From the NCBI RefSeq assembly GCF_003334305.1, contig NZ_QOWS01000008.1: 64,000 nucleotides of DNA. The stretch is one strand, 5' to 3'. Position 1 is the first letter of the stretch. Every line of letters begins with the position of its first letter. This DNA comes from Escherichia coli (GTDB lineage Bacteria > Pseudomonadota > Gammaproteobacteria > Enterobacterales > Enterobacteriaceae). The position numbers and the translations under genes are program-made. Shown here in pieces: positions 17,225-20,353 of the stretch. Below the pieces are notes generated by a model that was not told the DNA's origin, did not search any database, and worked only from the letters and a program-made list of their open reading frames with translations.

Positions 17225-17713
17225 ATGAGTGAGATAGTAATACGCCACGCAGAAACACGGGATTACGAGGCCATCAGGCAGATTCACGCCCAGCCGGAGG
17301 TGTATTGCAACACACTACAGGTGCCTCATCCTTCCGATCATATGTGGCAGGAGCGACTCGCCGATCGTCCCGGCATCAAGCAACTCGTCGCCTGTATTGA
17401 TGGAGACGTCGTGGGCCATCTCACCATTGACGTGCAACAGCGCCCACGCCGCAGTCATGTTGCCGATTTTGGTATCTGTGTCGACTCTCGTTGGAAGAAC
17501 CGCGGCGTCGCCAGCGCCCTGATGCGAGAGATGATTGAAATGTGCGACAACTGGTTGCGGGTAGATCGCATTGAACTAACCGTGTTTGTCGATAACGCCC
17601 CGGCAATTAAGGTCTATAAAAAATACGGCTTTGAAATTGAAGGGACTGGTAAGAAGTACGCATTGCGTAATGGTGAATATGTCGATGCATATTATATGGC
17701 GCGGGTGAAGTAA
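17225..17713 (+). CDS. yhhY: GNAT-family N-acetyltransferase
   Basis: Recognised protein begins MSEIVIRHAETRDYEAIRQIHAQPEV at internal ATG 17225 (162 aa) preceded by AAGAGGACAAAGGA; ORF track start 17147 lies inside the ryhB promoter region. Confidence 0.9.
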   Translation: MSEIVIRHAETRDYEAIRQIHAQPEVYCNTLQVPHPSDHMWQERLADRPGIKQLVACIDGDVVGHLTIDVQQRPRRSHVADFGICVDSRWKNRGVASALMREMIEMCDNWLRVDRIELTVFVDNAPAIKVYKKYGFEIEGTGKKYALRNGEYVDAYYMARVK

Positions 17714-17949
17714 GATAGTGCCCTTTTTCTGAGATGGAAAAAGGGTGTCATTCAAAATCGACATACCTTCCTTTAAGGTATTTATTTGCCCAATACATAT
17801 ATTGAGATTTAACTCATAATTACTTCCTAAAGTGTAATATTTTATTTTTTAATATATACGCCTACAATTTCCTGGAGTAAATAAATAACAATTAACAAGC
17901 ATAATATTGCCATTGATAAAATAGCATGCCATAAAAGGACTTTTCAGGG

Positions 17950-19128
17950 ATGAGTAATATTGTTTACCTGACAGTAACGGGAGAACAACAAGGAAGCATC
18001 TCCGCAGGTTGTGGGACTTCTGAGTCTACAGGTAATCGTTGGCAGAGCGGGCATGAGGATGAAATATTTACATTCTCACTCTTAAATAATATTAATAATA
18101 CGGGGCTTGGTTCACAGTTCCATGGTATAACATTTTGTAAATTAATTGATAAAAGCACTCCATTATTTATTAATTCCATTAACAATAATGAACAATTATT
18201 TATGGGATTTGACTTCTATCGAATAAATAGATTTGGTAGATGGGAAAAGTATTATTATATACAACTAAAAGGCGCTTTTTTATCGGCTATTCATCATCAG
18301 ATCATTCAAAATCAACTGGATACAGAAACAATAACTGTTAGTTATGAATTTATCCTCTGTCAACATCTTATCGCAAATACCGAGTTCAGCTATTTGGCAC
18401 TCCCTGAAAATTATAACCGTTTGTTTTTACCAAATTCAAAAAACCAAACAAATAATCGTTTCAAAACGTTAAACAGCAAAGCTATTGGCAGGCTACTTGC
18501 TGCTGGTGGCGTATACAATGGGAACATTGAAGGATTCAGAGATACTGCGGAAAAACTGGGTGGAGATGCAATAAAAGGCTATGATCAAATACTAAATGAA
18601 AAAACAGCGGGCATAGCGATAGCAACAGCATCTATTCTTTTAACAAAGCGTTCTAATGTTGATACATATACAGAAATAAATAGTTACTTAGGCAAACTTA
18701 GAGGTCAACAAAAACTTCTTGATGGTATAGACATAATAGAAATAATATACATTAAGAGACCTTCAAAAGACTTAGCTAACTTACGAAAGGAGTTTAATAA
18801 AACTGTAAGAAAAAATTTTCTTATCAAACTTGCAAAAACCTCCGAAGCATCTGGAAGATTCAACGCCGAAGACCTTTTAAGAATGAGAAAGGGCAATGTT
18901 CCTCTAAATTATAATGTTCACCATAAACTATCTCTAGATGATGGTGGTACTAATGATTTCGAAAATTTAGTATTAATCGAAAACGAACCATATCATAAAG
19001 TTTTTACTAACATGCAATCACGAATAGCTAAGGGAATATTAGTAGGTGAAAGCAAAATCACTCCCTGGGCCATTCCATCTGGCTCAATTTATCCTCCCAT
19101 GAAAAATATTATGGACCACACAAAATGA
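17950..19128 (+). CDS. yhhZ: Hcp-family protein fused to C-terminal HNH (colicin-DNase-like) nuclease domain; orphan polymorphic toxin
   Basis: 392-aa ORF in AT-rich DNA; N-terminal approx 150 aa Hcp-like; C-terminus NYNVHHKLSLDDGGTNDFENLVLIENEPYHK fits the HH..N..H HNH signature. Confidence 0.85.
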   Translation: MSNIVYLTVTGEQQGSISAGCGTSESTGNRWQSGHEDEIFTFSLLNNINNTGLGSQFHGITFCKLIDKSTPLFINSINNNEQLFMGFDFYRINRFGRWEKYYYIQLKGAFLSAIHHQIIQNQLDTETITVSYEFILCQHLIANTEFSYLALPENYNRLFLPNSKNQTNNRFKTLNSKAIGRLLAAGGVYNGNIEGFRDTAEKLGGDAIKGYDQILNEKTAGIAIATASILLTKRSNVDTYTEINSYLGKLRGQQKLLDGIDIIEIIYIKRPSKDLANLRKEFNKTVRKNFLIKLAKTSEASGRFNAEDLLRMRKGNVPLNYNVHHKLSLDDGGTNDFENLVLIENEPYHKVFTNMQSRIAKGILVGESKITPWAIPSGSIYPPMKNIMDHTK

Positions 19129-19619
19129 TGACTAAAACCCAAATAAATAAATTAATAAAAATGATGAATGATTTAGACTATCCATTTGAAGCACCGCTCA
19201 AGGAATCATTTATTGAAAGTATAATCCAAATAGAATTTAATTCTAATTCAACTAATTGCCTGGAGAAGTTATGTAATGAAGTTAGTATTCTTTTTAAGAA
19301 TCAACCTGATTATCTTACTTTTTTAAGAGCAATGGATGGATTCGAAGTTAATGGATTACGATTATTTAGCCTCTCGATTCCAGAACCTTCAGTTAAAAAC
19401 CTTTTTGCCGTAAATGAATTTTATAGAAATAATGATGATTTCATAAACCCTGATCTACAAGAACGGTTAGTGATCGGGGATGATAGCATTTCAATATTTA
19501 CTTATGACATTAAAAGTAACTTTTTTGAAATTAGAGATAATATTGGCACAGAAAATATATTCAGTTCGTTTAGTGATTTCTCTTCATTCTTAAACGAAAT
19601 CATGGACAGTTGTTCATAA
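19125..19619 (+). CDS. yrhA: putative cognate immunity protein of the Hcp-HNH toxin
   Basis: 164-aa acidic ORF whose ATG overlaps the yhhZ stop (ATGA); same AT-rich composition; position corresponds to yrhA, which in K-12 is disrupted by IS1 (no IS1 here). Confidence 0.6.
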   Translation: MMTKTQINKLIKMMNDLDYPFEAPLKESFIESIIQIEFNSNSTNCLEKLCNEVSILFKNQPDYLTFLRAMDGFEVNGLRLFSLSIPEPSVKNLFAVNEFYRNNDDFINPDLQERLVIGDDSISIFTYDIKSNFFEIRDNIGTENIFSSFSDFSSFLNEIMDSCS

Positions 19620-19713
19620 TAATCAAAAGGAAACAAAAATCATTGTAAACCATGCCATCTTTTTAGAGATTACCAGCAGAAAATTCCTTGTTCGAAATTT
19701 AGCAGTGCAAGCT

Positions 19714-19869
19714 ATGGAAAAACTTACAACGGAACTACACTCCTTAAGTGAGATGGACCGAAGACATGTAGTCTCTATTTTAGCCGAAATAGCTAATGGC
19801 TATGATGATTTTAATGACATGTTGATTTATTTAGAATTTTACCCGAATCATAAGATTCTGATATCTTAA
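19714..19869 (+). CDS. small ORF (51 aa) in degenerate tail of the toxin islet
   Basis: ATG..TAA reading MEKLTTELHSLSEMDRRHVVSILAEIANGYDDFNDMLIYLEFYPNHKILIS; below ORF-track cutoff; possibly the small gene annotated yrhD in K-12, not verified. Confidence 0.3.
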   Translation: MEKLTTELHSLSEMDRRHVVSILAEIANGYDDFNDMLIYLEFYPNHKILIS

Positions 19870-20068
19870 ATAAGAAAATCCCGTTCGACGTTCTGAAAAA
19901 GAAATCATAAAATATTAGCAGATACTTATTTCGTGACTATATCTTATCCGATGAACTTTTTTCAAAACCAGCATTTAATAATATCTTTGACGAAGATGAA
20001 CGCGTCTTTGCTCAATGTATCACACAGGAATAATAATATAACACTCAACAATAATATTTATTATAATT

Positions 20069-20353
20069 ATGATTACTTATCACGACGCATTCGCGAAAGC
20101 GAACCATTACCTTGATGATGCAGATCTCCCGGTCGTCATTACTCTACATGGACGCTTTAGCCAGGGCTGGTATTTCTGTTTCGAAGCACGAGAATTTCTC
20201 GAAACTGGAGATGAGGCCGCGCGCTTAGCTGGTAACGCACCTTTTATTATTGATAAAGACAGTGGTGAAATTCATTCTCTGGGAACGGCAAAGCCGCTGG
20301 AAGAATATCTACAGGATTACGAAATAAAAAAGGCTACCTTCGGCTTGCCCTGA
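20069..20353 (+). CDS. yrhB: small heat-stable chaperone-like protein
   Basis: 94-aa ORF MITYHDAFAKANHYLDDADLPVVITLHGRFSQGWYFCFEAREFLETGDEAARLAGNAPFIIDKDSGEIHSLGTAKPLEEYLQDYEIKKATFGLP recognised as YrhB. Confidence 0.88.
   Translation: MITYHDAFAKANHYLDDADLPVVITLHGRFSQGWYFCFEAREFLETGDEAARLAGNAPFIIDKDSGEIHSLGTAKPLEEYLQDYEIKKATFGLP

Follow-up and report, generated by a model that had tools for sequence, protein, structure and literature searches.

The AT-rich tail between yrhA and yrhB of Escherichia coli, including the annotated yrhD, as the probable remains of two orphan immunity genes

That strings of leftover immunity genes accumulate after replacement of the toxin tip is an established model for polymorphic toxin loci, as presented by Zhang et al. 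in 2012 (PMC3482391). For toxins built on Hcp, passages of a review (PMC6730261) describe the Hcp-ET effectors with cognate ETI immunity genes reported by Ma et al. in 2017, and give Hcp-ET1 as the toxin type of E. coli YhhZ, a protein that has also been described as HNH group-32 (PMC5714182). Downstream of yhhZ lies yrhD, an unexplained K-12 “y-gene” copied into thousands of annotations as a protein of unknown function. YrhD is mentioned in print as a hypothetical protein (P58037; PMC3575317), and elsewhere in the literature that we found the gene serves as a landmark adjoining IS1E.

The window analyzed here, a stretch of 64,000 nucleotides from an E. coli contig (NZ_QOWS01000008.1, assembly GCF_003334305.1), covers the yhhY-ggt locus, with the gene order yhhY-yhhZ-yrhA-yrhD-yrhB-ggt. 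On the larger scale the chromosome segment reads gntR, yhhW, yhhX, yhhY, a low-GC island, ggt, yhhA and ugpQ. The island (17700-20100) has 26-38% GC, versus 50-59% in its flanks, and contains yhhZ/tssD, yrhA, a 450-bp tail and yrhB. Its features are the following.

yhhZ (tssD), 17950..19128, plus strand: Hcp with an HNH nuclease toxin at its C-terminus (Hcp-ET1 type); the toxin gene that is active at this locus
yrhA, 19125..19619, plus strand: 164 aa, intact here, an exact match to “protein YrhA”
promoter-like TAGAGA-18-TATATT, 19532..19561, plus strand: found by a consensus scan, inside the 3′ end of yrhA
relic 1, 19621..19869, plus strand: probable start-less remnant of a gene of an ~84-residue, four-helix immunity family; stop-free frame 19594-19866
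yrhD, 19714..19869, plus strand: 51 aa (P58037), the stretch of relic 1 from an internal Met codon onward
relic 2, 19869..20036, plus strand: probable N-terminal ~53 codons of an 86-residue gene, with the start codon lost and the C-terminal third deleted
yrhB, 20069..20353, plus strand: 94 aa, intact, an exact match to YRHB_ECOLI; last gene of the string

YhhZ is named an Hcp1 family T6SS effector in protein cluster names, and its residues 1-147 match NCBIfam TIGR03344. YrhA matches the YrhA family of NCBIfam (NF038335, 1.5e-36, residues 4-163) and gave no match in a Pfam search; yrhA is presumed to be the current immunity gene for the HNH toxin. YrhB matches Pfam PF15567 (Imm35, 4.6e-23), and on this match yrhB is a putative orphan immunity gene of the Imm35 family. 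An Imm35 gene occupies the equivalent position in Citrobacter braakii. In strain PKF8 (L003 3288-4071) IS1 abuts yrhB directly, and yhhZ, yrhA and both relics are absent, an arrangement that suggests an IS1-mediated deletion of the toxin module sparing only the Imm35 gene.

The original prediction had described the tail (19620-20068) as AT-rich sequence without a long ORF, containing a clean ATG-to-TAA frame of 51 codons that differs from the frame of the upstream gene. This description was borne out at each point. GC is 0.28-0.36 in 200-nt windows (~31% around the ORF), and no long ORF is present; the small ORF runs from ATG 19714 to TAA 19867-19869, with the peptide exactly as quoted; and the frames differ, yrhA at 19125 being 0 mod 3 and the ORF at 19714 being 1 mod 3. 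The ORF listing begins the same frame three codons earlier, at GTG 19705. However, the ORF itself is not new, and its existing annotation had been missed: by exact look-up the peptide is identical to YRHD_ECOLI (Swiss-Prot P58037). Among 5,426 complete E. coli genomes, 3,809 carry the 449-bp segment, without exception on the chromosome, and its RefSeq annotation includes yrhD in K-12 and many other strains, in ~3,800 of the 5,426.

Nor is a 51-codon ATG ORF alone beyond chance, since one arises in 10% of 20,000 first-order Markov simulations of 19594-20068. The unusual feature is instead the stop-free run of 91 codons in the yrhD frame (19594-19866); runs of at least 92 codons occurred in 1.3% of 20,000 such simulations.

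That this frame is more than chance is shown by its relatives. The 82-codon translation of 19621-19866 was used as the query in an exhaustive phmmer search, which was followed by a profile search. The former returned proteins of ~80 residues with 36-39% identity, aligned to query residues 4-66 and hence beginning well upstream of the Met; the latter gave ~50 full-length relatives of 79-91 aa, again with alignments starting upstream of the annotated ATG. These relatives come from Citrobacter, Salmonella, Stenotrophomonas, Sphingomonas, Labrys, Cupriavidus, Iodobacter and metagenomes, and all are labelled hypothetical. We built a family HMM of 84 positions without any E. coli sequence and ran it on every stop-free segment of the window in six frames (1,817 segments). 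The only significant match among the 1,817 was the segment 19594-19866 (E = 4.4e-16), in which HMM positions 6-68 of 84 align to 19621-19809, with 31 of the 63 aligned codons preceding the annotated ATG. This profile match is the decisive evidence against a chance frame. What is new here is how far upstream the family homology reaches: it sets in at 19621, immediately behind the yrhA stop and 31 codons ahead of the annotated ATG.

The AlphaFold2 (AF2) model of one family member, P0096, based on an alignment of 59 sequences, is a four-helix bundle with a pLDDT of 95 and helices at residues 4-22, 30-45, 49-63 and 68-80. Placed on this model, the YrhD Met corresponds to about residue 37, midway along helix 2, and the YrhD product would be without helix 1, which carries the FLE motif, and without half of helix 2. 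FLE is the only invariant motif of the family; in the window it lies at 19660-19671, upstream of the annotated ATG, and reads FLEI. The window allele thus changes nearly invariant F and D positions, VRN replacing DxD as well. In the relatives the start lies 9-14 codons before the AIFLEF motif, a site that in E. coli is taken up by the 3′ end and stop of yrhA, and a search of the frame from 19594 to 19704 for a canonical start (ATG, GTG or TTG) found none before GTG 19705. At the other end, the helix 4 motif F-V-x-x-L-P-E-x-L-G is not recognizable in E. coli; HMM positions 69-84 are unaligned, and the C-terminus reads MLIYLEFYPNHKILIS.

Residues 42-49 of YrhD (DMLIYLEF, window 19836-19860) weakly resemble the helix-1 motif of the family, DLAIFLEF, and not helix 4, although hmmsearch scored this second domain at E = 28, which is not significant. 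The likeness may be the trace of a fusion between two tandem copies.

Some other sequences touch on the frame. P0078, a protein of 3,000 residues with nine matching stretches, was rejected as a relative: it is eukaryote-like and made of tandem repeats, which inflate its score. A single database protein of 246 residues, P0076, is a YrhA-YrhD fusion (...MDSCHNNQKETK...) explicable by the loss of one base at the yrhA stop (window 19611-19625), and either a sequencing error or a rare variant may lie behind it; this protein, with its 1-nt loss, is the sole support for a yrhA-yrhD fusion through frameshifting. In a metagenome scaffold of 588 nt (L024), the sequence left of window ~19615 is unrelated and richer in GC, and gives rise to an ATG-started, 88-residue version of the relic frame. 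None of the 5,426 complete E. coli genomes has the left junction of this scaffold (L024 1-60), and we regard the scaffold as a chimera or a rare variant. A blastn search of E. coli with the C. braakii cassette found no full-length yrhD homologue, the neighboring 91-aa gene being the only match.

Searches of Pfam, NCBIfam and PDB sequences with the family returned nothing significant. An attempted fold assignment with Foldseek against the PDB gave only generic helical bundles (best E = 0.64) and was not adopted. As for the genomic contexts of the family, six of the seven examined are polymorphic-toxin loci, of the CdiA, Rhs or Hcp kind. In Citrobacter sp. Awk 4 (L013/L014) the family occurs in an orphan array behind CdiA, and its gene overlaps the stop of a 207-residue ORF; in Labrys (L020) it overlaps the stop of an Rhs C-terminal fragment. 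Further orphan arrays stand behind a CdiA-like toxin with a Colicin_E5 tip in Cupriavidus (L018/L019), behind a CdiA-like protein with Fil_haemagg_2 in Iodobacter (L021), and behind CdiA with an endonuclease tip in a metagenome (L022). In C. braakii (L004) the family gene sits beside an Hcp toxin in the same yhhY-ggt hotspot as in the window. The seventh context is that of Stenotrophomonas (L008, 6001-6261), where the gene stands alone between a gene for a ZapE/AFG1-type ATPase and a DUF2884 gene, with no toxin nearby. This stand-alone arrangement recurs in several contigs.

The Citrobacter ORF (L013 5385-6008) and the Labrys Rhs fragment (L020 2883-4004) share their last 123 residues at 62% identity, across a CdiA-type and an Rhs-type scaffold, and in both a YrhD-like gene lies directly 3′. 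The shared toxin domain has the pattern WVDEN...NDSAxGARSN...FDGVDxNxMxDRK...GRWEV, whose FDGVD...DRK portion may, as a guess from sequence, point to a PD-(D/E)xK-like nuclease. Pfam and NCBIfam searches with it were empty; 74 homologues were found, mostly short fragments, of which several are labelled filamentous haemagglutinin. When one small gene follows the same toxin tip on two delivery scaffolds, it bears the mark described for such pairs (PMC3482391), and the family would therefore consist of cognate immunity proteins, a role to which the gene neighborhood points. A by-product of the analysis is thus a candidate uncatalogued toxin/immunity pair, made up of a CdiA/Rhs C-terminal domain of ~123 residues and a partner of ~84 residues predicted to form four helices.

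The original prediction had also noted that toxin loci often accumulate orphan immunity fragments, and the remaining ~200 bp of the tail do appear to hold a second relic of an immunity gene. The frame 19869-20036 reads NKKIPFDVLKKKS, a stop, NISRYLFRDYILSDELFSKPAFNNIFDEDERVFAQCITQE and two further stops. Over 53 residues it shares 49% identity (E = 1e-16) with the N-terminal part of an 86-aa ORF of C. braakii (L004 8180-8440), and in a six-frame search of the window it was the only significant match (E = 3.7e-6). The C. braakii ORF lies directly behind the Hcp-417 toxin gene and is followed by the Imm35 gene, as in the window. In the DNA alignment the ATG of C. braakii is matched by AAT in the window, and the 3′ part has lost ~100 nt. 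The in-frame TAA at 19908-19910 in the window strain is CAA in three other alleles.

In C. braakii two paralogous genes of 83-91 residues (MITETEFNVLKVMAE...) flank the Hcp cassette (L004 6308-6583 and 8779-9030). In 849 E. coli genomes (e.g. NZ_CP023353.1 4994754-4994987) a stretch with 75.6% identity adjoins a different tssD gene, and this would seem to be a further small gene that recurs in Hcp toxin loci.

Toxin tips of polymorphic toxins are swapped by recombination with toxin-plus-immunity cassettes. We hypothesize, with a probability of about 0.82, that two orphan immunity genes in decay make up the tail between yrhA and yrhB, stranded there when recombination exchanged the C-terminal toxin/immunity cassette of yhhZ. 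YhhZ and the Hcp-417 protein of C. braakii are 74% identical over residues 1-229 and have unrelated C-terminal domains, so at this one hotspot the two species carry a common Hcp with toxin tips that differ. For the E. coli locus we infer the following order of replacement events. The ancestor of relic 1 would have encoded a four-helix immunity protein of ~84 residues, whose relatives presumably neutralize the ~123-residue CdiA/Rhs toxin domain. Its start codon and first 5-9 codons would have been lost at the junction with an incoming cassette carrying the HNH toxin and yrhA; since the left edge of relic 1 is the yrhA stop, the simplest reading is that this cassette removed the start of the older gene. 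What is annotated as yrhD would then simply be whatever follows the first in-frame ATG to have survived. Relic 2 would derive from an 86-residue gene that once stood behind an alternative Hcp toxin domain, as it does at the same hotspot in C. braakii. The string would accordingly be ordered as yrhA (current), relic 1, relic 2 and yrhB, the last being an older Imm35 orphan that is still intact. A working protein from either relic is not likely, both would drift neutrally while yrhA and yrhB stay intact, and we infer that neither relic is expressed. Speaking against this reading are the stand-alone family copy in Stenotrophomonas, the lack of any Hcp fusion among the 74 homologues of the toxin domain, most of them short fragments, and the near-invariance of the intact ORF and the upstream RpoD site described below.

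Of the two possibilities raised by the original prediction, a small-protein gene or the decayed remnant of a longer immunity ORF, the second is supported: the frame is homologous to ~84-residue proteins of toxin loci, it extends 31 codons beyond the ATG without a start, and it carries nonsense alleles, described below. The 5′ truncation had escaped that prediction, as had the fact that some of the missing part can still be read in frame ahead of the ATG.

The functional small protein is quite unlikely, though it fares best among the alternatives. It would be a genuine, expressed protein of 51 aa, exapted from the C-terminal two-thirds of the immunity gene and functional wherever the ORF is intact. 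In its favor, the ORF is intact and essentially invariant in ~2,800 complete genomes at ≥99% identity, it has been retained in curated annotation, and an RpoD-binding site has been placed upstream of it by SELEX. An earlier survey likewise recorded zero substitutions among 68 copies of yrhD (PMC3575317), but invariance among those genomes fits close kinship of the strains as well as it fits selection. Against it, the product would begin in mid-helix, without helix 1 and the invariant FLE, and an ORF of this length is expected by chance at the frequency given above. The annotated ATG has no Shine-Dalgarno pairing (ΔG +0.1 kcal/mol, versus −5.3 for yhhZ), although yrhB also lacks it, so that this absence alone is weak evidence.

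The population evidence also speaks against it. We fetched three divergent alleles (L002, L016 and L017), and in these the yrhD frame is cut short by nonsense mutations, at two different codons in all, whereas yhhZ, yrhA and yrhB remain intact. The stops lie at the Leu codon of “SIL” in L002 and L017 and at the Tyr codon of “LIYLE” in L016, and PGAP marks yrhD as a pseudogene in all three. The lineages concerned are large: ~411 genomes, Nissle 1917 and the type strain ATCC 11775 among them, match the L002 allele at 99% identity or more, and ~413 match the L016 allele at that level. By our estimate the frame is broken in roughly a quarter of carrier genomes, a figure drawn from identity bands and not from inspection genome by genome. 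Conservation of the frame among related genomes, which the original prediction had proposed to check, therefore fails; this counts against a small-protein gene and not against a remnant.

Relic 1 evolves neutrally, and not under purifying selection. With few substitutions and three non-independent allele pairs as the basis, pN/pS is 1.18 for the relic frame, 2.75 for its annotated part (22 nonsynonymous versus 2 synonymous differences) and 0.70 for the N-terminal extension; for the neighbors it is 0.23 (yrhA), 0.23 (yrhB) and 0.49 (yhhZ). Nucleotide divergence among the alleles is 2.6-11.7% in three segments of the tail, 1.2-3.1% in yhhZ and yrhA, and 2.1-5.3% in yrhB. Together, the nonsense alleles and the neutral evolution disfavor the small protein, and they also disfavor the possibility that a longer product is made from a non-canonical start.

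That second possibility, which we consider very improbable, is that a frame of ~76-77 codons is translated from ATC 19639 or ATT 19642 to give a near-full-length orphan immunity protein, still protective against CdiA/Rhs toxins that carry the cognate domain. If it were true, yrhD of K-12 would not be dead but would carry a wrongly annotated 5′ end. In favor of this, the frame stays open from 19594 on, its product would include helix 1 and the FLE motif, and AAGGA at 19627-19631 offers Shine-Dalgarno-like pairing (−5.6 kcal/mol, as strong as that of yhhZ) at ~7-10 nt from the ATC/ATT. However, AUC and AUU start codons are very inefficient in E. coli. Moreover, the protein would have an unrecognizable C-terminal helix motif and the altered F and D positions noted above, its frame is the one interrupted by nonsense mutations in other lineages, neither the value for the N-terminal extension (0.70) nor that for the whole frame (1.18) speaks for it, and no toxin domain cognate to relic 1 is found within the window.

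It is just as improbable that the tail is a non-coding regulatory spacer, a promoter or an H-NS-bound region for yrhB with incidental protein-like frames, as its AT-rich sequence, the promoter-like hexamers at 19532-19561 and at 20038-20067 (the latter just upstream of yrhB, from the same consensus scan) and an H-NS mark might suggest, because the protein homologies are significant (E = 4.4e-16 and 1e-16) and account for the origin of the sequence, promoter-like matches in the region are not enriched (12, versus 12.2 in shuffles), and an Rfam search found no family at threshold. The hexamers inside the 3′ end of yrhA are those of the RpoD genomic-SELEX site reported upstream of yrhD together with the H-NS mark (PMC3946193), and this site allows for transcription of the region. 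The tail could serve today as a promoter for yrhB and still be of relic origin; the two readings do not compete.

If yrhD is the start-less, neutrally drifting tail of an immunity gene, there is one fewer uncharacterized small protein in E. coli, and the gene should be re-annotated as a pseudogene. The value for annotation is modest and the general understanding of polymorphic toxin loci is unchanged; the analysis also documents the replacement history of the Hcp-toxin hotspot between yhhY and ggt.

The closest known counterpart is YrhD of E. coli K-12 itself (b4612 region; P58037, cited in PMC3575317), which has the identical 51 residues at the same position between yrhA and yrhB. The setting differs insofar that yrhA of K-12 is interrupted by IS1 (IS1E) whereas yrhA of the window is intact, and the database entry describes an uncharacterized protein where we read a gene fragment. 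Compared with the Hcp-ET/ETI systems, as passages of the review present them (PMC6730261), the relics of the window lie beyond the cognate immunity gene and would belong to other toxin types. Imm35 (PF15567), represented by yrhB, resembles the family of relic 1 in being a small cytoplasmic immunity-type protein in the same string, but the two are unrelated in sequence, and the YrhD-like family is predicted to be all-helical and is without a Pfam, NCBIfam or PDB-sequence match. With the leftover immunity-gene strings of Zhang et al. (PMC3482391) the locus differs in that two of its four downstream units are no longer intact and that no orphan toxin-tip fragments are visible between the units. 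It shares with them the order of toxin and then immunity genes, the presence of several unrelated small genes of immunity type behind one toxin gene, and a conserved toxin N-terminus with a C-terminus swapped between species at one hotspot. In conclusion, yrhD would be a relic of an ordinary kind, an instance of a known phenomenon, and is best treated as a pseudogene fragment.
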